Positions 12,598 to 63,460 of a DNA stretch of 64,000 nucleotides are shown here, one piece after another (the first letter of the stretch is position 1; every line of letters begins with the position of its first letter). This DNA comes from a phage. Below the pieces are notes generated by a model. It searched no databases. It was not told the origin of the DNA and was given only the letters and a program-made list of their open reading frames with translations. The stretch lies in the sequence record PX068454.1. The stretch is one strand, 5' to 3'. The translations under genes and the position numbers were made by a program.

Positions 12598-15500
12598 TTA
12601 AAGAGAGAAAGTCGCGTAGGCTCCCAGACGATACTGCTGGTCACCAGGGAACATAACACCTATAGAGGCTGTCCCTAGAATCCTGCCTTCCTTTCCAGAC
12701 TCCATTCTGAACCCTACCCATCCTGAACTCCTTGCAGCCTCGATGTTGTCGCTATACCCGAAAGTGGCAAGATCGTCAACACCAGCCCCAAACAGCAACT
12801 GAAGCTGACTTCTCGGAAGCCCTATAATTTCAGGAATATACGCACCAAAGTACACCATCTGCCCTACCTTAGGACCGCTGCCGTACTCCATCGGTTTGCT
12901 TGTAGAGAAAGTCTTCATACCAGAAGTACCTGCCGGATTAGGGTATGCCCCGTTTGTTGCTGTACCTATCCACATTCTCCACTGTGGTGCCATCTGTTTG
13001 ACAGTAAAAGATGTTGAAGACGTTTTGCGACCTGCATCATCAGTAGCTACAAACGTTATAGTGACATTACCAGGAGCTTTAAATGTTACCAGCCCTGTGG
13101 TAGCATCCACTGTTGCAATGTTGGTATTACTGCTTTCCCAAGTCTTTCTAATCCCAGACACATTGGAAGGGGTAATAGAAGGTTCCTGCATCTGCAGTTT
13201 ACCACCTACAATCCCTATGCCGTTACCGGGGTTATACAACACACCAACTTCATCTATAATGTTACCTGCCTTGAGACTATACTTCCTTGAGAAGTTGTAA
13301 GTTCCGTTATAAGTGTGTGTCCCTGAGAAGGTGACATCTGCTTTTCCGTAAGAGATGCAAACCAAAGCATACTTCCTGTCAGGCAACGTTTCTCCAGTCT
13401 CTGGGTGAGTTTTACCTACCTGGAACACACCCGGGTCAGTGGAGTCGTGGCTATCACTAACGGAGCTTGGACCACCCATCAGCTGTGACAAGCAATTCCT
13501 TACCCATGTCCAGTTATTATCGCTGGAGAAGTCCACAGTCAAATCAAACACAACCCACTCATTTGGCTTCCACACAGGTGTTGTAATGGACTTGCCTACG
13601 CCACCCCCTTGGAGTGTTGCCGACTGTTCGGTGATCAGGGCTGCATAGGCCAGAGTCCCTAAACTCAGAGTCTGGCTTGCTGTCCTTACTACCTTAGAAT
13701 CAGCATCTGTGAAGTTGTTGATTATTTGGAATGTGCCATAAGTGTTTTTACAGGTAATTCTGGCGTTCAGTGTGTCAATCTTCCTCACATCTGCCATAGC
13801 AGCGTTAGACACAGAGAAGTCAGAAGCTTTAGCTGAGTTTGCCGCAACAGCAGGATCAACGTTAAGAGTTGCGTTGAACTGACAGGCAGGGGTAACCAGC
13901 AGCTTGTTATCACCTATTTGCTTCCATGAAACACTTTGAACAGGAAGATTCCATTTAATACCTGAGAAAACTTTAGCAACCCTTGGCCCCAAAGCTCCAG
14001 TCCTGTTGTCTTTACAGCACATAGACATGGTGATCGTTGACGGAGCGGCTTGACCAAACAATTGCTGCGCTTTTGCAGAGGACATAGTGTAGAAATTGTC
14101 CTTAACAAACTCATCAGCAGCTAGAGATCCGTCAGCCCTCCACCACTGAACCTGATACCCTGTTTTATCCCAGCCTCCGACCTGCTTCAAGTCCTCCCAA
14201 GAGATTTCCAGATCCCCCGTGGTCGGGTTGATTGCAGCGGTCCCTGGTGTACCGGATGACCACAATGGGATATCAAACCACGCAGGTTTAACAGATTGCA
14301 CTGCATTAGGACCTATTGCAGCAGCAAGTTGTTGACCCATCAGCACGCGAGCATCTTTCACCAGGCCCCATTCTATCATAGATCCAGAGTAACCTTCTTT
14401 CTTGTAGGCAGAGGATCCGTTCAAATGGATGAGCCTGCTGCAGTCGAAGCCATACGCTCCACCACCGTTAGGATCTGCAAAGTTGGTTATGATTCTATCC
14501 CTAATATTTTTCCATGCCCTACCTCCAATCTCGTAGTCATGGTCATAACATCTTTGCAACGTTGTCCAGCAAATGATTGCCATTCTTCTGCCACCTGTGA
14601 ACCCGAAAGCGCCGTCATTCAGCTCTTTCCACAGGTAACAGTTGGTTGTCCACATAGCCCTGTGGATATTGAACCAGTTTATAGATTTAGCGGAGTTGTT
14701 CCACTGAGTTCCGGGTAATTCAGGCCACACTGCATTGACTAGCATGTCCTCTGTACCGGCATCCATTAAGAAACCTCTTACCTTCTTGCCCATACCTGCC
14801 CTGTCTTTAGCAATCCAATTGCCAAACAGTCTCAGTTTTGGACCATAAACAACATCCTCTGGGTGCTCAAAAGAGACATACTTTAAGTAGATTGTTGGGT
14901 CACCGTGGGTGCCATCACAAACACTTTTGTGCATGTTTTCGCCAAGGTCTAGACGAAGCCCCGTCACTACTTTAGACGTGTCGGTGAATTTGTCTGTTAA
15001 GTCAAATTCATACCACCACCACCCACCACCTAGCATAAATTTCTTGCATCGCACAGCGTCTGTGTCAGATATTCTCTTATCCCCTGCAAAAGGTGAATCA
15101 GCAAACTGATAGTGCAGAGCAGTCTCAAATAGGTGGGTGGAAGTTCCGTTCTCTGCAAGAACTTGCTTACCTATCAGATCGCACTTAATGATCATCACAA
15201 CACGCTTGTATCCGTTTGTTACCGGAACTTGCATAGATATGGATGTTCCATCCATGTTCGATCTTAGATCACTCATGATGATATAGGGGTCGACAGCGTT
15301 ACCTAAAGTTTCAGGCCCTGGAATTATCTTGTATTTCTTGACCTGGCCCATAAATCTGTCACTGGCGTAAGTTGCAGCCTCAAAACAAGAGCCACCACCA
15401 GGTAATTCTCCGGGTCCCCAGAAAAATGCCCCATAGCAGTTATAGAACCACTTATTAGGGTCGTATTTGTTCTTGAAGGTCTGGACCTCGTTGGCCTGTT

Positions 15501-18234
15501 TTGTCAAGAAAACCTGCGTATCTGTAAAGATTGCAGGATTTACCCTTGCCTGACGCGGAGGGTAACCTGTAGTTTGGTTAAACCACAAATTACAAGAGTA
15601 ATCCCTCATATAGTCATAATCAGAGTATTTGTTTACATCTTCGTTCCAACACATGTTTAGGTTGGTACCTCCCATGCATACAATATATTCTGCGACATAC
15701 TTATCACTTCTGGTAGGAATACCTATGAACCATCTGTTAACAGGCTCATCCCAAGCTGTGCGCTCATCTTTAACGCAGATAGCAATCCAGTCATGTGTTC
15801 CTGTTTTCTTGCACACATCTCGCTTCATACCATAGTAGAACTCTTTAGTATTTGGCTCAGGTGCATTTATCAGGTAACTCCATGCCTGATTTGCATAAGT
15901 CCCATTGGTGCGCGGATCATGGTCAAAGGCATACATGATGATCCTTTCCCCACCAAGATGTTCGCCAAGAGTAACTTTGACATTCACATCGCCGTAACCG
16001 TTGCGAACAACATCCATATTGTCAATAGAGATGCCTCTAGGGGTATAGGCAATTTTCAGTGAGTTATCCTCACTAGTGCCACCAAGAGTGATCCCTATGT
16101 TGTTTGTTGTCCCGTCGGCATATCTTACTGTAGCTTCCCAGCGTATTCCGAAATATCCTACATCATGGCTGACAATTTTCAATGTACGAGCGCCAGGGTG
16201 AGGTTTTCCAGGATCAGGCCAAGGGTCTGGGTGTTCGTGGACAGTCAACGACGTTCCGTTTTGCTCGTTAACCTGCAACATTTTACCACCTCTACCGTTA
16301 GGGTTGAACTCCCATACGGCCTGTGTCTGCACCAAGTTGTTGTAGGTATTTCGTCTCTGATCATAAATCTCTTGGGTAACATCATAAGTGACTGATCCAG
16401 CATCCATTCTGTGGAGTCGGACCATATACGATGTATCCCCTTCTACTGCAGGCTGAGTCCCATTCAGTCCGAAGTATACAGTATCGTTAACATGGAACTG
16501 CTTGTTTCTGCCAACGGTATGCCACTTGCCGTTGGACGGATACGCAGGAACTATGGTGTTCCAGTTCAAAGTCCTTGTCGTGTGAGTTCTGCCTGTGCCA
16601 TGCTTGTCATGATAGGTTATTTTTACAGAGTACAGGCCACGTCTGTTAACATTTCTGTTATACTGGGTAACAACAACTTCGTTGGCCCCGCCGTGGTTCC
16701 AGTTGGCGGAGAATTGGTAATTTGCATCTGTAACAACCGTACCTGCAGCATTCACCAGTTCAATCTTGTCAATAATGAACGTAGCCCCATCTGGCTGAGG
16801 CTTCAATTTCATCTTGACCGTGTCACCAATGTAGATATTGCTAACACTGCTAACACCATTAACGTCAAAAATATCCTCAACACCCCAACTGTCTACTGGG
16901 ACATTTTTATACCAATTCTCAGGAACCTCTGTGAACCCCTGACTGTTAAGTCTGCCGCCAAACAGGTTGTTAGAGCCTGCAAAACTTCCCCTTGGGACTC
17001 CTGACCACCAAAGTTTACCATTAACAACAGTGAAGGTTCCTAAGAAACCTTCCCTGTGGATGCCTTGGAAATAAACACTCTCTGTCCAGCTAACTGGCAG
17101 GCGTTGCTCAACATATTTAGCTGTAGCAAGAGCTTGATAGTGGATAAAATCGGCCCTAGGACTATTGTTTGCAGATTGTGCACCAATATCATTGCATAAG
17201 TTGCGAGAGAACCCACGATACTGCTTAGTGCCATTATTGAAGAAAATGCCACTTGTGCCGTACCCACGAGCCATTATTACCTCATGGGTGTAGGTGATAT
17301 TCAGTTCCCGCCATGTATCATCTCCCCAAATGTTTTGACCATAAAATACGTTAACAAGCTGCTGGTCATCGGGTCTGTGCATCCTCTGTGTGGCAATTAT
17401 TGCCCCGTTAGGACCGCACATAAACCCTTTCCACTCCTCATCTGCAGGAATGCCCCTCAAATCGTTACGAGTAATCTGCACAGGAGGCCAAACAAGGTCG
17501 TTTCTACTGTTATTTCTCAGAAAGTCATATCCAGCAATCCAGAAACCTCTAGGACCACCGAAAATAACAGAGTTGTCATGCACCTCGCAGTTGATGCTTG
17601 GGTTTTTCCAAGGACCTGTTTCAGGATTTTCCGATGTTTCACCAATCTTTACAGGGGTTGCATGCTGATTTTTATCTACATGCAAAGATCCGTAGGTGTT
17701 GTTACCAGATCCATACAGGTTAAGTATGCCAGTGCCTTCTGCCTCTGCAATAACCCAGACAGTGTTGTTAATACCACCCATCACCTCAATAAGGCGCTCT
17801 GGGTGGGTGTCAAGGTGCAACCCTTTAACGATCTGTTCAGGAAGAGGTGTCCACTCTCTTACACAAACATCATTACCGCCTGCAGCATCAGACCCAATAA
17901 GCCCTGCAGTGCAGCCGATGTAGAAAAACTGGTTATCAAAAGTTCGGATCACAAACGCACGGTCTGCTCTCCACACATGATCAACGTTCCAGGCAGCCTC
18001 GTTGGGATAGTTTATCGTGTCAAGATCCCCAGTGCGGCACTCTCCGAACCTGTTATAGCCTGTGATATTAAGTTGACCATCATCAAAAAGTATAGCTAAG
18101 CTATTTACATAGGATACTGTAGTGCTTGTGCCATCACTGTTGTCTATTGGGTATGACAGAACAGCAAGTTCCTTAATTCCACCCCTCTTATCGAGGAAAT
18201 GACGACCAAGTTTTAGCAAAGGGATTGGAAGCAT
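12598..18234 (-). CDS. giant virion/tail-fibre-like protein (1878 aa) with Ig-like Big_2-type domain
   Basis: Single uninterrupted ORF; Big_2-like segment NIATVDATTGLVTFKAPGNVTITFVATD near C-terminus; sits at distal end of tail-fibre block. Confidence 0.8.
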   Translation of the reverse strand: MLPIPLLKLGRHFLDKRGGIKELAVLSYPIDNSDGTSTTVSYVNSLAILFDDGQLNITGYNRFGECRTGDLDTINYPNEAAWNVDHVWRADRAFVIRTFDNQFFYIGCTAGLIGSDAAGGNDVCVREWTPLPEQIVKGLHLDTHPERLIEVMGGINNTVWVIAEAEGTGILNLYGSGNNTYGSLHVDKNQHATPVKIGETSENPETGPWKNPSINCEVHDNSVIFGGPRGFWIAGYDFLRNNSRNDLVWPPVQITRNDLRGIPADEEWKGFMCGPNGAIIATQRMHRPDDQQLVNVFYGQNIWGDDTWRELNITYTHEVIMARGYGTSGIFFNNGTKQYRGFSRNLCNDIGAQSANNSPRADFIHYQALATAKYVEQRLPVSWTESVYFQGIHREGFLGTFTVVNGKLWWSGVPRGSFAGSNNLFGGRLNSQGFTEVPENWYKNVPVDSWGVEDIFDVNGVSSVSNIYIGDTVKMKLKPQPDGATFIIDKIELVNAAGTVVTDANYQFSANWNHGGANEVVVTQYNRNVNRRGLYSVKITYHDKHGTGRTHTTRTLNWNTIVPAYPSNGKWHTVGRNKQFHVNDTVYFGLNGTQPAVEGDTSYMVRLHRMDAGSVTYDVTQEIYDQRRNTYNNLVQTQAVWEFNPNGRGGKMLQVNEQNGTSLTVHEHPDPWPDPGKPHPGARTLKIVSHDVGYFGIRWEATVRYADGTTNNIGITLGGTSEDNSLKIAYTPRGISIDNMDVVRNGYGDVNVKVTLGEHLGGERIIMYAFDHDPRTNGTYANQAWSYLINAPEPNTKEFYYGMKRDVCKKTGTHDWIAICVKDERTAWDEPVNRWFIGIPTRSDKYVAEYIVCMGGTNLNMCWNEDVNKYSDYDYMRDYSCNLWFNQTTGYPPRQARVNPAIFTDTQVFLTKQANEVQTFKNKYDPNKWFYNCYGAFFWGPGELPGGGSCFEAATYASDRFMGQVKKYKIIPGPETLGNAVDPYIIMSDLRSNMDGTSISMQVPVTNGYKRVVMIIKCDLIGKQVLAENGTSTHLFETALHYQFADSPFAGDKRISDTDAVRCKKFMLGGGWWWYEFDLTDKFTDTSKVVTGLRLDLGENMHKSVCDGTHGDPTIYLKYVSFEHPEDVVYGPKLRLFGNWIAKDRAGMGKKVRGFLMDAGTEDMLVNAVWPELPGTQWNNSAKSINWFNIHRAMWTTNCYLWKELNDGAFGFTGGRRMAIICWTTLQRCYDHDYEIGGRAWKNIRDRIITNFADPNGGGAYGFDCSRLIHLNGSSAYKKEGYSGSMIEWGLVKDARVLMGQQLAAAIGPNAVQSVKPAWFDIPLWSSGTPGTAAINPTTGDLEISWEDLKQVGGWDKTGYQVQWWRADGSLAADEFVKDNFYTMSSAKAQQLFGQAAPSTITMSMCCKDNRTGALGPRVAKVFSGIKWNLPVQSVSWKQIGDNKLLVTPACQFNATLNVDPAVAANSAKASDFSVSNAAMADVRKIDTLNARITCKNTYGTFQIINNFTDADSKVVRTASQTLSLGTLAYAALITEQSATLQGGGVGKSITTPVWKPNEWVVFDLTVDFSSDNNWTWVRNCLSQLMGGPSSVSDSHDSTDPGVFQVGKTHPETGETLPDRKYALVCISYGKADVTFSGTHTYNGTYNFSRKYSLKAGNIIDEVGVLYNPGNGIGIVGGKLQMQEPSITPSNVSGIRKTWESSNTNIATVDATTGLVTFKAPGNVTITFVATDDAGRKTSSTSFTVKQMAPQWRMWIGTATNGAYPNPAGTSGMKTFSTSKPMEYGSGPKVGQMVYFGAYIPEIIGLPRSQLQLLFGAGVDDLATFGYSDNIEAARSSGWVGFRMESGKEGRILGTASIGVMFPGDQQYRLGAYATFSL

Positions 18235-57107: not shown

Positions 57108-58655
57108 TTAGATAAAACGCTTGAACATAGAAGGTGATGAGATTGATGGAATCACACAAGGCAGCGCTACCTCCTCTTTCTCCAGGAAATTAATCGCAGA
57201 AGCTACACAGTCGGCCCAGTCGTCTTTTCTGTTAAATGTTGATCTTTCCCCGTTGAACTTTTCAAGTTCAGTTAGAAATGCTTCCAGAGTGTCAGGATGG
57301 AAACTGGATTTTACAATCCTCACCATTCCTTGTTGGGCAAGATTGGCAAAGGGTGAGAACCTTGTCAGTTTAGATTTGTTGGAAGGCATTGGATCTTCTT
57401 CAACCCTGAACCCTTCGGCGAGCAAGGATCTGGACGAGGTTAAGAACTCGCTCTTACCTGCCTGACCGGGGTCCACAGAAAATACGATTATGCAATCATC
57501 TCCATCAAACTGCGCCTGTTTCCTGATGATCACATCTCGTTCCCCAGCCTTTTTACAGAACTTTCCTTCCAGACCTGTGGAATACCTACCGTCATCCACG
57601 TTCTCAGGACAATAATCCCCGGACAGGTAATAAAAGCCGTCGCTATCTTTACTTACCTTAACACTGGCGGTAAAGTCAGGAAATTTATTACCGGAAGTTC
57701 TCTCGGTTCCTGCTTTATCCCATGCCCTGCAAGATACTGATCCAAGAGGTACTCTATCGGCATCACGAAGGAAAGATCTTTGGAAATAGTTTGCACCTTC
57801 AGGTTTGGCAAACCAGTTGCCATGAAGAAGCTGGGCTTTTTCAAGCTCGGGTAGACCTTCAAGGAAAGCAAGGTATTCTGGGTTATCCCTCAAGCATACA
57901 GGATTATCGAAAATTGTTGCGCCTATAAACGAGAATGACAACGGTCTTGGCTTGATTTCCACACCCAGTCCATTGACCGTGGTGTATTTCTCTATCAACT
58001 CTTCTTTAGAGTCTCCCCAGATAAATTCACCGTCGCGTCGGATAAAATATCTTTTCTTACCACATTTCTCCGGATCTGGATACCCTTCATCGTCCAACCA
58101 CCACCTAACCAGTTTGGCAAGCATGTGTTCTGAGTCGGGGTTACAGCTGATAACCATTCTTGACGGATATTTTGACTGAGATCGCAGACGCGACATCAAA
58201 TAGTCTATCTGCTCCCATTCGAACTGTGTTCCCTCATCGAAGCAAACCATGGTATACTCAAGCCCTTGATGGTTGAGCTTATCTTGGACATATTCCATGT
58301 GACAGTATTTTACAACAGCGCCTTTTTTGCTCCTGTCCCACTTACCGGTGCTCGGATCAAACCGTGGAAAAATAAATTTATGATCCTTCTCTCTGAATTT
58401 TGGTTTGATGTTCTCAGGGAGATCGCTGTAGATAGCCACTGCTTTAGGCCATAGGCCTCCTTCACCCTCCAGCTGCGGGGTTGTTCTTCGGAACATAACC
58501 ACAGAGCTGTGCGGGTCATCAATAATTTTAAGCGGCATCAGCTGCAGGAGGAACGACTTACCTGATCCCGCTGCACCACCAATGACAAGAATGTCTGCAT
58601 CGTTTTCAAGGATCATCTTCTGCTTTTCAGAACACGGTCCGTAAATCTTAGACAT
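57108..58655 (-). CDS. terminase large subunit
   Basis: Walker A GGAAGSGKS, Walker B MVCFDE, C-terminal nuclease-like IVFSVDPG; 515 aa. Confidence 0.85.
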   Translation of the reverse strand: MSKIYGPCSEKQKMILENDADILVIGGAAGSGKSFLLQLMPLKIIDDPHSSVVMFRRTTPQLEGEGGLWPKAVAIYSDLPENIKPKFREKDHKFIFPRFDPSTGKWDRSKKGAVVKYCHMEYVQDKLNHQGLEYTMVCFDEGTQFEWEQIDYLMSRLRSQSKYPSRMVISCNPDSEHMLAKLVRWWLDDEGYPDPEKCGKKRYFIRRDGEFIWGDSKEELIEKYTTVNGLGVEIKPRPLSFSFIGATIFDNPVCLRDNPEYLAFLEGLPELEKAQLLHGNWFAKPEGANYFQRSFLRDADRVPLGSVSCRAWDKAGTERTSGNKFPDFTASVKVSKDSDGFYYLSGDYCPENVDDGRYSTGLEGKFCKKAGERDVIIRKQAQFDGDDCIIVFSVDPGQAGKSEFLTSSRSLLAEGFRVEEDPMPSNKSKLTRFSPFANLAQQGMVRIVKSSFHPDTLEAFLTELEKFNGERSTFNRKDDWADCVASAINFLEKEEVALPCVIPSISSPSMFKRFI

Positions 58656-58942
58656 TAACCTCTCTCCTTTGGAAACAGTGTTCTAATATAGTCTTGCAAA
58701 ATGATCAATTTAGCCCTATCATTACTGCAAGACAGGTTATTATCCCTCATAATGCCAGAATTCACCGCATCAGGCGCACCTTTCTTTAAAGGTATAGCTT
58801 TAGCAGGAGGCTTCATAGCACCTTCGGGCGGTTTAACAATCAATCTTCCCACATCCGGAGGATCAATCTTATATTCTTTTTCGACACTTGTCGCACATCC
58901 GCACAGCAGCAAGCAAGTAACTAACAATACGGCGGCTCTCAT
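58655..58942 (-). CDS. o-spanin (outer-membrane lipoprotein, Rz1-like)
   Basis: Lipobox-like LLLCGC, proline-rich mature region, C-terminus KERG like lambda Rz1 SERG; TAATG overlap with terminase start. Confidence 0.7.
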   Translation of the reverse strand: MRAAVLLVTCLLLCGCATSVEKEYKIDPPDVGRLIVKPPEGAMKPPAKAIPLKKGAPDAVNSGIMRDNNLSCSNDRAKLIILQDYIRTLFPKERG

Positions 58943-59337
58943 CTACCCTCCTGATTAATGCTCTCGTTATAAATATCTATAAGCTGGTCAGGTAGTGTTG
59001 ACTTCTTACCCTCAGGCGACTGAAGGTAGATAATCTGCTTTTCTTTACCTGCCATCTTAGCTGCCTCCAGCTTATCCTGTAAGTCAGAAAGGGATTTTTC
59101 AAGGTTTTTCACCTCCTCGGCATGTCCCATTTTAATCCTGTCGGCTCGCTTTTGTTGCTGGTCAAGGATCTGCTCCCACTTCAACTCTGTTGCTGTTACA
59201 CCTTCCTGATAAGCAGCGTTAAGCTTAGAGTTAAACCAATACACGGCCCCCAGGTATGCTGTGCCTAGAGCAGCTGCAAAAACTAAACCTTTTATGATCC
59301 CTCTATACCTACTCAGCCATGTTAAAAATGAAATCAT
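58939..59337 (-). CDS. i-spanin (inner-membrane, Rz-like)
   Basis: N-terminal TM helix GLVFAAALGTAYLGAVYWF then coiled coil; ATGA overlap with o-spanin. Confidence 0.65.
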   Translation of the reverse strand: MISFLTWLSRYRGIIKGLVFAAALGTAYLGAVYWFNSKLNAAYQEGVTATELKWEQILDQQQKRADRIKMGHAEEVKNLEKSLSDLQDKLEAAKMAGKEKQIIYLQSPEGKKSTLPDQLIDIYNESINQEGR

Positions 59338-59350
59338 TTTAAGGCTCCAG

Positions 59351-59390
59351 AAACGAAAAAACCCCGCAGCTATACAGCTAACGGGGCGGG
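59351..59390 (-). terminator. rho-independent terminator
   Basis: CCCCG...CGGGG hairpin with inner AGCT palindrome, then TTTTTTCGTTT on minus strand. Confidence 0.65.
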
Positions 59391-59442
59391 TTAAAATTGA
59401 GTAACCTAAATAGATCGAAACTAACTAAAAGGAGACTAATAC

Positions 59443-59712
59443 TTATCGCGGCACTCGGTGGATGATTCTAACAGTAACTGCATTTTCATTCATCAAGTAT
59501 GCATCTACATCTCTGTAAATATAAAACTTCTGCTCACTATCGACAACACAAGCTACCGCCCCTTCAGAGTTGTCTTCAAAAAAGACCACCACTGCATCGC
59601 AGCTGAGTTCATGATATGACTCTCGAAGATTTACAGCCAGAGGATTGAAATCGTCACGAAAATCTACAGTATGGGTTGGATTTACACGCTCTACAATTTT
59701 AAGTGTATACAT
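59443..59712 (-). CDS. hypothetical protein co-transcribed with tRNA cluster
   Basis: 89-aa ORF, SD AAGGAA. Confidence 0.5.
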   Translation of the reverse strand: MYTLKIVERVNPTHTVDFRDDFNPLAVNLRESYHELSCDAVVVFFEDNSEGAVACVVDSEQKFYIYRDVDAYLMNENAVTVRIIHRVPR

Positions 59713-59758
59713 TTTAAAGGTTCCTTTTGTGTGTATATGTTTAAAGTATAACTAAAGG

Positions 59759-59835
59759 TGGTCTCCACGGAGTGATTCGAACACTCGACCTCCTGATCCC
59801 AAATCAGGCGCTCTACCAAGCTGAGCTACGCGGAG
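59759..59835 (-). tRNA. tRNA-Pro (anticodon UGG)
   Basis: Manual cloverleaf: 7-bp acceptor with one G-U, T-arm GAGTG/TTCGAAT/CACTC, anticodon loop UUUGGGA, encoded CCA. Confidence 0.7.
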
Positions 59836-59846
59836 TATTTATAATT

Positions 59847-59921
59847 TGGTGGCCCTGGGTGGAATTGAACCACCGTCTGGCGATTATGAGTCGCTTGCTT
59901 GAACCTTCCAGCTACAGGGCC
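59847..59921 (-). tRNA. tRNA-Met or tRNA-Ile2 (anticodon CAU)
   Basis: T-arm GGTGG/TTCAATT/CCACC, anticodon loop CUCAUAA, encoded CCA. Confidence 0.65.
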
Positions 59922-59922
59922 A

Positions 59923-59998
59923 TGGTGCTGATGGCAGGACTTGAACCTGCAACCTATTGATTACAAATCAATTGCACTGCCAATTGTGCTACATCAGC
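59923..59998 (-). tRNA. tRNA-Thr (anticodon UGU)
   Basis: T-arm GCAGG/TTCAAGT/CCTGC, anticodon stem ATTGA/TCAAT, loop UUUGUAA, encoded CCA. Confidence 0.7.
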
Positions 59999-60002
59999 AA
60001 AA

Positions 60003-60102
60003 AGGTGCTAGGTGGTGGAATCGAACCACCTATGTATTCAACGACTACCTCGTCTATTTTCAGGATTAAAAATCCTCGCCCTTGCCAAAGGGCTTACCTA
60101 GC
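60003..60102 (-). tRNA. atypical tRNA-like gene (about 100 nt; UUU in anticodon-loop position; about 31-nt variable region; no encoded CCA)
   Basis: Perfect 7-bp acceptor GCTAGGT/ACCTAGC, D-arm GCCC/GGGC, T-arm GGTGG/TTCGATT/CCACC, only 4-bp anticodon stem, extra hairpin GACGA-GGTAG-TCGTT. Confidence 0.4.
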
Positions 60103-60200
60103 GCAATATGTTGACCATGTGGCTAGTCGGCGATGACGACTGTAACATTTGGTAATCCGGTTCTGCTTCCGGCTTTCGCTTAATTACATAGTCAACAATA

Positions 60201-60291
60201 TGGAGGAGGGTAATGGAATCGAACCATCATCGAGTCATCCTCAACGGGACGGTTTTCAAGACCGCTTGAGCACCATTGCTCCCTACCCTCC
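60201..60291 (-). tRNA. tRNA-Ser (anticodon UGA), class II
   Basis: Anticodon arm GCGGT/CUUGAAA/ACCGT, long variable arm, T-loop TTCGATT, encoded CCA; 91 nt. Confidence 0.75.
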
Positions 60292-60405
60292 TTTATAAAC
60301 AATACTGATAATGACACTGATTTTCGAGCAGTTAGTGACTAGTATAAACGACGATAAATATCAATGCCATTATCTGTATGATTTATGCATTTAAAAATAT
60401 AAATT

Positions 60406-60492
60406 TGGTGGGGAGTGGTGGAGTCGAACCACCCGAGTCGCAATGACAATAGATTTACAGTCTACACCGCTACCTCTACGGGATAACTCCCC
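60406..60492 (-). tRNA. tRNA-Tyr (anticodon GUA), class II
   Basis: Anticodon arm GTAGA/CUGUAAA/TCTAT, long variable arm, T-arm GGTGG/TTCGACT/CCACC, encoded CCA; 87 nt. Confidence 0.75.
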
Positions 60493-60496
60493 AATT

Positions 60497-60571
60497 TGGC
60501 ACCCCGTACTGGACTCGAACCAGTGTCAACGGCTTAGAAGGCCGCTGCTTTATCCACTAAGCTAACAGGGC
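60497..60571 (-). tRNA. tRNA-Arg (anticodon UCU)
   Basis: T-arm ACTGG/TTCGAGT/CCAGT, anticodon loop CUUCUAA, acceptor with two G-U pairs, encoded CCA. Confidence 0.65.
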
Positions 60572-60629
60572 ACTGGGTGGCTTTCTTTTACACCTGAGCC
60601 GCCAGAAAAGGTGGGAGACCATGTTTACA

Positions 60630-60658
60630 ATATTACATTGTTAAGCAAAGTTTGTCAA
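60630..60658 (-). promoter_or_regulatory. sigma70-like promoter for tRNA cluster: TTGACA - 17 nt - TAATAT
   Basis: Read on minus strand about 50 nt upstream of tRNA-Arg 5' end. Confidence 0.6.
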
Positions 60659-60667
60659 GAAAATATT

Positions 60668-61006
60668 TTAACTATTGCCAACAGGCTGTATCTCTGTGGT
60701 AAATGGCATAAAAGGTGCTGGTTTTTCAGCCTCTTCTACTACCACCTCTTCCTCTTCACCAAACATCTCATCATATTCTTCCTGCATTCGGTCTGCCTTA
60801 TCAAGGACATACTCTGCAATGCTTTGACGAATATTTTGCTTGGTTTTCGGATCCAACATCAGCTCTCTTAAAACTTTGTGAGCTTCTGGAACCATCGCTA
60901 TAAAAGATTCCTTCATATCAAGAATGTTCTTCTCTAGCTGAATGGCGTTGGACTCCTCTTTCAGAGGTCTGCCTCTACGGCGACGCTTTTTAGTTGTATC
61001 CGCCAT
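60668..61006 (-). CDS. small DNA-binding-like protein (Arg/Lys-rich N-terminus, acidic C-terminus)
   Basis: Start set at ATG 61006 (SD GGAGGA), not track start 61063; N-terminal KKRRRRGRP. Confidence 0.55.
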   Translation of the reverse strand: MADTTKKRRRRGRPLKEESNAIQLEKNILDMKESFIAMVPEAHKVLRELMLDPKTKQNIRQSIAEYVLDKADRMQEEYDEMFGEEEEVVVEEAEKPAPFMPFTTEIQPVGNS

Positions 61007-61021
61007 GTTTCCTCCATTATC

Positions 61022-61063
61022 ACGTGATAGGTGGATTTTATCACGGCAAATACTGATTGTCAA
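61022..61063 (-). promoter_or_regulatory. sigma70-like promoter TTGACA - 17 nt - TAAAAT with overlapping inverted repeat (operator-like)
   Basis: -35 at 61058-61063, -10 at 61035-61040 (minus strand); palindrome CGTGATA...TATCACG (61022-61046) overlaps -10 and start site. Confidence 0.55.
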
Positions 61064-61090
61064 GTTCGCCGCAGGGTGGTATTCCCTGCG

Positions 61091-61351
61091 ACTTGCCTAG
61101 CGTCCTAGACCAACAAGACCCAACAAGTGGGTTACCAGATACCCATTACCGCGCTCTGGCTCGACCTTATTACAGGTTGGCTGGGGTCACATCGTCATGT
61201 GCTGGCTGCCCCTACCATTTTAAGTGTGGTGCACTATCAAGCCCTCTAAGGGGAACTCAGACTTCTCCGAACCCTGTTTCAAAGCATCCGGAGATAAAGC
61301 CATCAAACTCATCTTTAAATTGGATATTCATCATGATACACGAAAACAACC
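61091..61351. other. GC-rich structured intergenic element A (candidate small RNA)
   Basis: About 260 bp with no ORF of 60 aa or more, locally GC-rich in an AT-rich genome, several stem-forming segments; adjacent 7-bp-stem hairpin at 61070-61090. Confidence 0.25.
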
Positions 61352-61869: not shown

Positions 61870-62448
61870 TCAACGTTCGTAGTAAATCTTATTCAACATT
61901 ACCTCATCGTTTGCAGAAAGGATATCAAGATATGCATCACCAAATCTGCCTGCAACAACCTCTGCATGATACATCACTTCGTTAACATCGTCAAGAGTGA
62001 TAACCGGATGACCATATCTTTCTGAATATTGCCTCAGGGTGCGATGTAACGAGTCGTCATCATATGCAGACTTTTTAATATCACAAACACGACGAATGGC
62101 CTTGATGTCGAAAAAACCTGTGCGATACCACCCAAGAAAAAAGTTCCGTGTAGTGTCAACATCTACATCAATACCATTAAGAACCTTATCTACAAGATAG
62201 CTGTCATCCTTTGGACTAGCGTCCTTAGTGCGAATGTAGTTGCCATCTTTTCCAGGTGATAGCTCCTTCTCATCACCAACCTGCATGCCATCATTTGGCG
62301 GTGTTAGCCACTTATCCGGATGCTTACGATCACTAGCGTTAGAATGATTACGCTGGAAACCTGGCTTCCACTTGAAAGTTTTCTCCATCTGTTCTTCATT
62401 CTGATAACGTTTTGCAATCTTTTCACTGGCATCTTTGCGTGAACTCAT
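61870..62448 (-). CDS. hypothetical protein
   Basis: 192-aa ORF with strong SD AGAGGAGG. Confidence 0.6.
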   Translation of the reverse strand: MSSRKDASEKIAKRYQNEEQMEKTFKWKPGFQRNHSNASDRKHPDKWLTPPNDGMQVGDEKELSPGKDGNYIRTKDASPKDDSYLVDKVLNGIDVDVDTTRNFFLGWYRTGFFDIKAIRRVCDIKKSAYDDDSLHRTLRQYSERYGHPVITLDDVNEVMYHAEVVAGRFGDAYLDILSANDEVMLNKIYYER

Positions 62449-62559
62449 AGCAGCCTCCTCTTCAAGTTATAGAAAAACTCACTGTATCGCTTTGTAACGA
62501 GCTTTTCTATCAAACTGGTGCGATTGCCTTACTTGGTATAGTTTATATAGCTGTGGAGC

Positions 62560-62815
62560 GATTTAGGGGCCTTCTTGTCAGTTTCCACACATAAACTTTA
62601 TCCGAACTCGCGCGGGAGGCTCTCAACCGACTCCTTCCGGCGCTGGCAAGCTTTCGTCGGTGGTCCACATTAGTGCTCGGCCTTTGGCCTGCGCTATCGC
62701 TTCGCTCCCACACATGTTAACAGGCCTGCATGTATGCACTTCTGTCATTGTGTGCACTACGGAGGCCCGGCATCTCGCCCCTCGTAGGCGAGTGCCAATG
62801 AAGGGCCGACACTAC
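62560..62815. other. GC-rich structured intergenic element B (candidate structured RNA or cis-element)
   Basis: No ORF; nested hairpins e.g. GGCCC-GCA-CTCGCC(CCTCGTA)GGCGAG-TGC-GGGCC at about 62752-62800, and GTGCAC...GTGCAC palindrome. Confidence 0.3.
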
Positions 62816-62839
62816 CAATAATAAGTAATAAATTTAAAA

Positions 62840-62915
62840 CATGGTACTTAGGATCTAGTATATTCTACATAAGTTAAGTATATGTACTTTAGTACCATAA
62901 GTACTAGATCTTTTA
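62840..62915. repeat. AT-rich block with inverted repeats (GATCTAGTA / TACTAGATC; GGTAC / GTACC)
   Basis: Direct reading; extreme AT content next to palindrome array. Confidence 0.45.
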
Positions 62916-62952
62916 TTTTTTATTATTTAGTTATTTTAGTTATATTCTTTAT

Positions 62953-63035
62953 GTGTCCGTATCACGGACAGTTAGTGTCCGTATTACGGACAGATGTGTC
63001 CGCGTGACGGACAGTAGTGTCCGTATCACGGACAG
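62953..63035. repeat. array of four 17-bp palindromic sites TGTCCGT-nnn-ACGGACA at 21-22 bp phasing (iteron/operator-like)
   Basis: Sites at 62954-62970, 62976-62992, 62997-63013, 63018-63034; first and fourth identical, others differ only in the central 3 nt or by one half-site position. Confidence 0.7.
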
Positions 63036-63109
63036 TTACTAACCTCTGTTCCATAGTGAACATAAAACATACAAATCCTTATAGTACAGATGTTTAAGTT
63101 TTTACTGGT

Positions 63110-63460
63110 CTAACCAGTTGTTGACATTCGAATAACTTCTTCTGGTGGCAAAACTTTGGAAAATGTGCATCTTTTACCTCTCCCTTGTGTGGATATTTCA
63201 ACCACTCCTGCACATTCTAAAGTTTTAACGCACGCTGCTGCTTTTGTTTTCTTTATCCCAACATCTGCTGCAATTTTCCTTGTGCTGGGTGTGAAGCGTG
63301 AATTTTCTCCAAGCTTATACCAGTTGTGCAGGTAGCAGTATACGATCTTGTCATATAAGTCAAGAACAACAACCTCCCCAGTTGTGTCATTCAAAACTTT
63401 TGACATAGACAGTATTTCAAGGGGGACTTTAAGATATAGCAGCTTATCCCCATCTTTCAT
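63110..63460 (-). CDS. winged-helix / HTH DNA-binding protein
   Basis: 116 aa; HTH-like TRKIAADVGIKKTKAAACVKTLECAGVVEI; SD AGGAG; adjacent to palindrome array. Confidence 0.6.
   Translation of the reverse strand: MKDGDKLLYLKVPLEILSMSKVLNDTTGEVVVLDLYDKIVYCYLHNWYKLGENSRFTPSTRKIAADVGIKKTKAAACVKTLECAGVVEISTQGRGKRCTFSKVLPPEEVIRMSTTG

Follow-up and report, generated by a model that had tools for sequence, protein, structure and literature searches.

A conserved noncoding hairpin element of rV5-like phages is homologous to modules of satellite-like Escherichia coli plasmids

The 64,000-nucleotide (nt) stretch of phage DNA analyzed here, taken from sequence record PX068454.1 and referred to below as the window, belongs to an rV5-like phage (Vequintavirus) of E. 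coli, and the region under study has its best database match, with 99.3% identity, in Escherichia phage HMD-6. This region holds element B, a guanine-plus-cytosine (GC)-rich stretch at 62545 to 62815 delimited by composition and conservation, and we show that it is a real, conserved, noncoding hairpin element homologous to modules of satellite-like plasmids. GC content is 0.60 in 62600 to 62799, compared with 0.30 to 0.43 on the flanks, confirming the excess over the AT-rich surroundings reported in the initial annotation; the block described there is real, but it starts at ~62545, about 15 nt earlier than had been proposed. As also annotated, it lies between a protein gene on the minus strand (open reading frame 77 [ORF77], 61870 to 62448) and an AT-rich, palindrome, and iteron locus (62817 to 63035). 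The flanking genes are on the minus strand throughout. Read in that direction, a polynucleotide kinase gene and a phosphoesterase gene are followed by a winged helix-turn-helix (HTH) gene, iterons, an AT-rich dyad, element B, and ORF77, and then by two small ORFs, another GC-rich gap, ORF74, and seven transfer RNA (tRNA) genes.

No ORF of at least 60 amino acids (aa) was found in 62560 to 62815 on either strand, in agreement with the initial annotation; the longest encode 56 aa (62543 to 62713, minus) and 53 aa (62660 to 62821, plus). The former corresponds to ORF78, which is annotated in rV5 and Bas phages, appears as a hypothetical protein in some other records, and is left unannotated in most; if it were a gene, element B would encode a small basic protein. 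We examined the frame in the window and 16 fetched relatives. It is uninterrupted in all 17 sequences, and even the 3-nt deletion of Murica leaves it intact; however, stop codons are naturally scarce in GC-rich sequence. Variable sites are distributed over the three codon positions as 9/13/10, compared with 25/13/66 in the flanking ORF77 and 8/12/37 in ORF79, and 23 of the 31 variant codons are nonsynonymous (8 synonymous). Moreover, ORF78 matched no Pfam family, and its frame is not preserved in the satellite homologues described below. With no third-position excess and mostly nonsynonymous changes, the protein-coding reading of ORF78 was rejected, and it is very improbable that the element encodes this protein. 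Since codon periodicity is independent of strand, its absence means that no frame is coding on either strand. Thus, the noncoding claim held against the one conserved short frame, and some records wrongly label element B as a gene; neither ORF78 nor comparable "hypothetical proteins" represent genes, and the annotations should be corrected.

Element B is 89 to 99% identical in 119 to 125 Vequintavirus records and is found in all ~120 database relatives, which share the same module order with a single 18-nt insertion/deletion (indel). The density of variable sites is ~0.19 per site in the element, compared with ~0.33 at flanking third codon positions, and by this measure the element appears to be under moderate constraint. 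Searches by DNA or via ORF77 detected no distant phage homologue outside Vequintavirus, and in an unrelated phage whose ORF77 homologue is 50% identical, the gap upstream of that gene is just 60 nt long and lacks the element. An exact 28-mer of the element was absent from IMG/VR; a shared 23-mer turned up in four metagenome contigs and a single viral contig but in none of the reference genomes. L022 and L202, two rV5-like contigs of greater divergence, encode an ORF77 protein with 81% identity and keep the element up to its last hairpin, P1. A few bases past P1, homology stops and unrelated sequence follows, in which both the initiator-like gene and the repeats differ and the AT-rich dyad is missing. 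Because L022 and L202 switch after P1, this hairpin marks the edge of a module, and the element can be separated from the module with the iterons.

The element consists of hairpins and linkers. Two linker copies, CCACACA (62585 to 62591, plus) and CCCACACA (62707 to 62714, plus; UGUGUGGG on the minus strand), carry the motif that joins the cassettes of the satellite arrays. The A-core hairpin (62626 to 62661) has a 6-bp stem, ACCGAC (62626 to 62631) paired with GTCGGT (62656 to 62661), and a 24-nt loop, TCCTTCCGGCGCTGGCAAGCTTTC, that is identical in the window and the satellite plasmids; among phages, loop position 62637 varies between C and A. It is contained in a satellite-shared block (62610 to 62671) with GCGCGGGAG at one end and GGTCCACATT at the other. 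Two mini-hairpins, GGCC-TTT-GGCC and GCG-CTAT-CGC (62679 to 62700), lie between this hairpin and the second linker; they are invariant in L022 and L202, have one pair broken in each of L002, L008, and L013, and resemble the mini-hairpin cassettes of the satellite arrays. Hairpin 2 (62709 to 62754) was predicted on both strands; CACACA/TGTGTG closes its inner stem, and it holds the 18-nt indel (62734 to 62751). The phages with the deletion (rV5, Murica, and A147) retain a perfect 8-bp CACACATG/CATGTGTG stem. In L022 and L202, the closing stem of hairpin 2 is lost. The nested hairpin P1 (62764 to 62807) is kept in all phages, and its stems are exactly those of the initial annotation: GGCCC (62764 to 62768) and GGGCC (62803 to 62807) enclose GGCATCTCGCC (62769 to 62779), the loop CCTCGTA, and GGCGAGTGCC (62787 to 62796). 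A GTGCAC...GTGCAC palindrome, which had been reported together with these stems, proved to be different: GTGCAC occurs once (62752 to 62757), its upstream partner is ATGCAC (62734 to 62739), and the two are direct repeats that bracket the deletion of rV5, Murica, and A147.

Two further candidates in this stretch were dropped. The segment 62596 to 62624 matches the E. coli type I-E clustered regularly interspaced short palindromic repeat (CRISPR) at 19 of 29 positions, but the hairpin arm is absent, satellites do not share the likeness, and no CRISPR direct-repeat family matched. A possible DnaA box at GTTTCCACA (62581 to 62589) has only 7 of 9 matches and is not conserved in L022. As a separate observation on the linker motif, the window contains 25 copies of the 7-mer CCACACA, compared with an expectation of 11.3 (0 of 100 shuffles reached 25), and GTGTGGG is strand-biased in the composite genome (16 versus 4, HMD-6 orientation), independently of gene direction.

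When plasmids and complete E. coli genomes were searched at high sensitivity, homologues of element B emerged in satellite-like circular "plasmids" of 13.2 to 13.7 kb, present in 7 of 5,426 complete genomes, in which the shared stretch is unannotated. The plasmid set comprised L017 (NZ_CP020521.1), L018 to L021, L023, L024, and L027 to L030, with two metagenome contigs of the same kind included. Two blocks of the element, 62609 to 62671 and 62761 to 62813, match these plasmids with ~86% identity; for the first, blastn gave 85.7% over 63 nt against L017 (12387 to 12449). The A-core is found in the satellite plasmids, and P1 is also present in one of them (L017). Across a composite whole phage genome, the A-core and P1 blocks were the strongest phage-satellite nucleotide matches, although the proteins shared by phage and satellites are only ~50% identical. 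The plasmids encode major capsid, tape measure, and tail-completion proteins, a baseplate-type protein 54% identical to that of the phage, and a further protein with ~48% identity, as well as small HTH proteins, a weak Rep/O-like protein, and their own iterons. Their tail genes are of the rV5 type. ORF77 and ORF79 showed no homology to the satellite Rep-like protein. No terminase is annotated on the plasmids (10 of the 15 L017 proteins were scanned), and the literature searched contained nothing on these plasmids or on satellites of the rV5 group. Judged by their sequences, these plasmids probably represent plasmid-borne satellites of rV5-like phages, a family that has so far gone undescribed.

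Comparison with the satellites also provided the evidence for structure. The density of structure noted in the initial annotation was not statistically striking in the element itself, with whole-region minimum-free-energy z-scores of −1.74 (minus strand) and −1.98 (plus strand). Within the genus, RNAalifold detected one double compensatory change and many breaks in single sequences on either strand; therefore, the phage set alone cannot prove a global fold. On the other hand, the compensatory base changes that the annotation had proposed to look for were found in two helices once satellite homologues were aligned. The A-core stem (S2) reads ACCGAC/GTCGGT in the phage and GCTGCC/GGCAGC in the satellites, amounting to three double compensatory changes around an identical loop, while P1 in L017 shows two (G-C to T-A twice). 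In a formal count over S2 and P1, 99.1% of cells were paired, compared with 24 to 51% in slid controls; four of the double-changed pairs were counted formally, and the fifth, in P1, was misaligned by MAFFT and read from the sequences. Pairing kept through compensation, as in conserved structured RNAs, was thus seen for S2 and P1 only and not for a global fold. That the A-core loop stayed the same while its stem was replaced argues that pairing and loop sequence have both been selected over a long time, and these comparisons indicate that the folded structure of the shared hairpins is under selection.

A covariance-model scan with Rfam 15 returned only tRNAs at gathering thresholds and none in element B. 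At E values up to 10, the sole match of the element was rli43 (26.5 bits against a threshold of 100), mostly in the AT-rich flank, and a satellite array gave nothing credible; neither ARAGORN nor Rfam detected a tRNA, transfer-messenger RNA, or tRNA-like fold in 62500 to 62850. Element B is thus absent from Rfam. Of the earlier interpretation, the noncoding and structured character stood, and the proposal of a stable small RNA or ribozyme-like element was left unsupported, with no Rfam family even at E values up to 10. A link to the tRNA genes had also been suggested. It is correct in position, since the element is ~2 kb from the cluster (seven tRNAs by ARAGORN, all within 59759 to 60571), but three protein genes lie between, and the origin-like module and the satellites are more informative neighbors. 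T4 stable RNAs C and D are encoded beside a tRNA cluster; like them, element B is phage encoded, exceeds the genome in GC content, and shares a quarter of the genome with the tRNAs, but the distance, the intervening genes, and the lack of a tRNA-like fold set it apart.

Next to this comparison, we record several observations on the surrounding genome. In the tRNA cluster, ARAGORN called a tRNA of 99 nt, with a 4-base anticodon (atcc) and no assigned identity, at 60004 to 60102 on the minus strand (Rfam tRNA, 37 bits), and the EduardKellenberger record has a 97-nt tRNA-Lys at the corresponding cluster end; the feature could be a tRNA with an intron or insert. The second GC-rich gap (61050 to 61300; GC, ~0.52), between the ORF74 and ORF75 homologues and without a convincing ORF, is presumably the "element A" of the initial annotation; it had no Rfam match at E values up to 10 and none to the satellites. 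In rV5 (L001, DQ832317), the terminase large subunit at 58027 to 60872 is annotated as three joined pieces, and in HMD-6, several HNH endonuclease genes interrupt replication and nucleotide-metabolism genes, including that of a class III ribonucleotide reductase.

The satellite copies of the A-core are embedded in hairpin arrays. Twelve satellite arrays were analyzed; they extend over 430 to 660 nt, with analyzed cores of 309 to 418 nt, and consist of cassettes that are each followed by CCCACACA(CA) in window-plus orientation. Cassette content is shuffled and differs between plasmids. One cassette type is a set of three mini-hairpins whose sequences are entirely different between plasmids while the architecture is constant; another, A', was present in 4 of the 12 satellites studied and had no phage match in the database. 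A promoter-like site (TTGTCA-16-AATTAT) precedes the arrays in window-plus orientation and diverges from the leftward-operon promoter. Most arrays end in an intrinsic-terminator-like hairpin followed by TTTCATTT; that of L017 ends in a P1-type hairpin instead. Past the array come C/G-rich and AT-rich stretches and then plasmid-specific iterons, so that the order array, AT-rich stretch, iterons is common to satellites and phage. Scans for three CCCACACA motifs spaced 35 to 65 nt apart revealed no further element-like locus in either scan; that of the genome collection returned mainly regular, evenly spaced arrays that are CRISPR-like by spacing pattern alone.

Triple mini-hairpin cassettes are also dispersed in the satellites, in intergenic positions, at gene 3' ends, and in frame within the L017 Rep ORF. 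HMD-6 (PQ505080.1; L198) has, in a part of the genome not covered by the window, a 1.8-kb noncoding region between divergent gene blocks (15330 to 17100) with repeat families and long inverted repeats, and a triple mini-hairpin cassette there (~16176 to 16222) is 82 to 85% identical to the satellite cassettes, with covariation in the third hairpin. In view of these dispersed cassettes, one of them shared with a phage noncoding region, part of the hairpin vocabulary may be mobile. Repetitive extragenic palindromic (REP) sequences and bacterial interspersed mosaic elements (BIMEs), Rickettsia palindromic elements, and T4-type promoter-stem-loop cassettes are mobile palindromic cassettes, and the element and satellite hairpins resemble them in being small, GC-rich, dispersed, shuffled, located at module boundaries, and sometimes in frame. 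Element B might accordingly be a deposit of such selfish or structural palindromes, spread between phage and satellites with little function and conserved through recent common ancestry and exchange. The dispersed cassettes, the shuffling of array content, the position of P1 at a recombination boundary, and an evolutionary rate only ~40% slower than that of third codon positions would fit this explanation. However, unlike REP-like or Rickettsia palindromic elements, the A-core and P1 occur just once each in the composite genome (135 kb) and are fixed throughout the genus; ~120 phages share the module order with just the one 18-nt indel; and the 24-nt loop was held while its stem was replaced by compensation, which argues for selection rather than drift after transfer. 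We therefore regard a deposit of little function as rather improbable.

Because the satellites carry the same A-core inside a predicted promoter-array-terminator unit, element B is probably best read as a regulatory RNA. Our leading explanation, put forward tentatively and at somewhat less than even odds in our own estimate, is a modular structured RNA that is read from the plus strand as far as P1 and presents a recognition loop shared by phage and satellites. Such a transcript would be antisense to the flanking genes and would run from ~62545 to P1 (62764 to 62807), limits with which the GC-rich block coincides; P1 would form its 3' end and separate it from the iteron and AT-rich origin-like module. 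The working part would be the hairpins presenting fixed loops, most clearly the A-core, whose stem may change as long as it stays paired and whose loop is nearly constant. A loop that stays identical while its stem changes is what would be expected of a recognition site displayed on a hairpin, and the A-core loop may be recognized by a shared partner, whether a protein or an RNA with a complementary loop. Positioned near replication and an early-gene switch, the RNA could be regulatory, with helper phage and satellites recognizing or mimicking each other. Transcription of the element, its strand, its action in trans, and its binding partner are all parts of the explanation that we infer.

Several plus-strand hints accompany this reading: a satellite hairpin (GGTCCAC..GTGGGCC) with a U·G pair, another possible helix that requires G·U pairs, the terminator-like sites, and the satellite promoter-like site. 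In L022 and L202, P1 is followed on the plus strand by CCCACAC, a hairpin, and a long U-run, and a scan for terminator-like sites gave 5 matches against 0.9 expected. A number of results weigh against a plus-strand RNA. In the window, no sigma-70-type promoter or terminator was predicted for the element on either strand; P1 is followed by GACACTACCAATAAT with no U-run, and 62300 to 63200 holds no terminator-like site. A plus-strand extended −10 sequence (TGGTATAGT, 62534 to 62542) is not conserved in L008, L022, or L202, and the literature searched contains no transcript data for any rV5-like phage. An A-U to G·U change at the S2 end (L008 and L022) fits the minus strand only. The wobble count is symmetric, with 5 G·T pairs on the plus strand and 6 on the minus strand beside 195 Watson-Crick pairs, and complementary (trans) targets of the element occur within the window at chance level. 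Furthermore, folding of the whole element gives weak z-scores, individual sequences of the genus break many of the predicted pairs, and all of the covariation falls on one phage-versus-plasmid split, with few independent events.

The closest parallels to a regulatory plus-strand RNA are the P4 CI RNA, the c4 RNA of phages P1 and P7, and the PLE small RNA SviR, untranslated structured RNAs beside a switch or replication region that show short conserved sequences on hairpins and act in helper-satellite regulation. Element B is alike in presenting hairpin-displayed conserved sequences near a putative switch or replication region; it differs in having no sequence or Rfam similarity to these RNAs, no detected partner sites of the seqA/seqC or a'/b' type known for P4 CI and c4, and in being a module carried by the virulent helper phage itself.

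The strand evidence is split, and part of it speaks for transcription in the other direction, as a structured leader or intercistronic spacer on the minus strand, between ORF79 and ORF77 of the leftward polycistron (rV5 genes 81 to 67). There, the hairpins and G/U-rich linkers (UGUGUGGG) would shield a ~660-nt untranslated gap from Rho and RNases, and they might serve in processing or in termination-resistant transcription towards ORF77 to ORF74 and the tRNA genes. The neighboring genes all share the minus strand, genes 27 to 81 form a single leftward unit according to the rV5 paper, and the element stays with the ORF77 side when the other side is swapped in L022 and L202. The A-U to G·U change at S2 fits this strand, L022 has a minus-strand promoter-like site upstream of P1, and in 8 of 12 arrays, the more stable fold is that of the minus strand, although G/U richness may explain this difference. 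By contrast, the satellite leftward promoter lies downstream of the array, which places the array outside the leftward mRNA; the terminator-like sites are on the opposite strand; and the ORF77 homologue with 50% identity does without the element.

The minus-strand linker itself bears on this possibility, since UGUGUGGG equals the boxC core of enterobacterial rrn leaders, UCUGUGUGGG. Some satellites share up to 13 nt, CAATCTGTGTGGG, with the rrnC leader, and one satellite cassette reads CGCUCUUUGUGUGGG, which resembles boxA followed by boxC. The canonical boxA-boxC spacing is 18 to 19 nt, with boxC downstream and boxA being CGCUCUUA in lambda and UGCUCUUUA in rrn. In the phage, the boxC-like core occurs twice on the minus strand (62707 to 62714 and, weaker, 62585 to 62591), and no boxA of either form was found at that spacing from either core. 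In addition, overall k-mer sharing with the rrn operon was at chance, and the phage linker motif, unlike an rrn leader, is repeated and flanked by unrelated hairpins; a leader of the rrn or nut type is therefore not seen in the phage. Mimicry of 16S or 23S rRNA was considered and rejected, as 10- to 14-nt matches were about as frequent as by chance and only the boxC match stood out. The structured leader named in the initial annotation is kept as a live rival, possible but in our judgment less probable than the plus-strand RNA.

Between ORF77 and the element, a block at 62449 to 62535 on the minus strand, with the ribosome-binding site GAGGAGG, is near-invariant; these 85 nt abut the start codon of ORF77 on its upstream side and are ~95% identical even in L022 and L202, in which the ORF77 protein has just 81% identity. 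No sigma-70-type promoter was predicted in it; it may be a regulatory 5' untranslated region or a phage-specific promoter.

On its other side, element B adjoins origin-like features. The AT-rich long dyad with GATC sites (62817 to 62940; ~120 nt; z-score, −2.5) is invariant among phages and far more conserved than element B. Next to it are four palindromic 19-bp iterons, GTGTCCGTATCACGGACAG (62953 to 63035), present in 3 or 4 copies among phages, which adjoin the small winged-HTH gene (63110 to 63460, minus; 116 aa). The product matches HTH_36 and DUF6945 and is labeled "replication initiation protein" in the Murica and HMD-6 records. Together, iterons, dyad, and winged-HTH gene resemble an origin or operator module of the lambda or plasmid type. 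In the composite genome, the cumulative GC-skew minimum lies 1.5 to 2 kb from element B, where transcription diverges, which fits an origin nearby but is no proof of one. The rV5 paper defines no origin and does not mention element B.

This setting raises the question of whether the hairpins act as DNA, on single-stranded or supercoiled molecules beside a replication origin, where they could prime synthesis in the manner of single-strand initiation (ssi) or primosome assembly sites (PAS) for the phage primase-helicase or could be a packaging site copied by the satellites. G4 oric, phiX174 PAS, and RSF1010 ssiA/ssiB are clusters of GC-rich hairpins that act as folded single-stranded DNA, and element B is similar in its GC-rich hairpins beside an AT-rich, iteron-bearing module that looks like an origin. 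Its contact with the four iterons, the invariant dyad, and the initiator-like gene, the same order of array, AT-rich or C-rich stretch, and iterons in the satellites, the GC-skew minimum, and the almost purely Watson-Crick stems with rare, symmetric wobble agree with this possibility. So does the lack of an annotated terminase gene on the satellites, which would therefore need a cis signal of the helper. Yet L022 and L202 replace the initiator, repeats, and AT-rich module and keep the element, which thus does not travel with iterons and initiator and is not part of an iteron-type origin. Four of the 12 satellites carry the A' cassette without phage match, and a promoter and a terminator predicted on either side of the satellite arrays speak for an RNA product. 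The rV5 literature searched gives no mapped origin or pac site for the group, and the start points of the GenBank records do not suggest a terminus at this place. Compared with the known priming signals, the element has smaller, modular hairpins. Hairpins acting as DNA thus seem unlikely, ranking below the minus-strand leader and above the selfish palindromes, with a coding function last.

Nearly pure Watson-Crick stems suit a sense/antisense RNA pair as well as DNA-acting hairpins. ColE1 RNA I/RNA II and R1 CopA/CopT are origin-proximal hairpins with conserved loops and stems that may covary. As in these countertranscript systems, element B is near a putative origin, and a need for both strands to fold would explain its stems. 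However, a convergent promoter pair is known only from the plasmid systems, element B is not upstream of the initiator gene, and it survives replacement of the iteron and initiator module.

Taken together, a recognition module displayed on hairpins, whether RNA or single-stranded DNA, of which element B would be the helper-phage copy and by which satellites sense, mimic, or hijack their helper, is a possibility that we advance with caution. If it is true, the shuffled hairpin arrays joined by CCCACACA would be a new kind of modular regulatory locus, and element B, with its satellite homologues, would be a candidate new RNA family. The ~13-kb "plasmids" of clinical and animal E. coli are hereby flagged as probable phage satellites. 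rV5-like phages are widely used in phage therapy and biocontrol, and the shared module would give a concrete, mutable handle on helper-satellite recognition.

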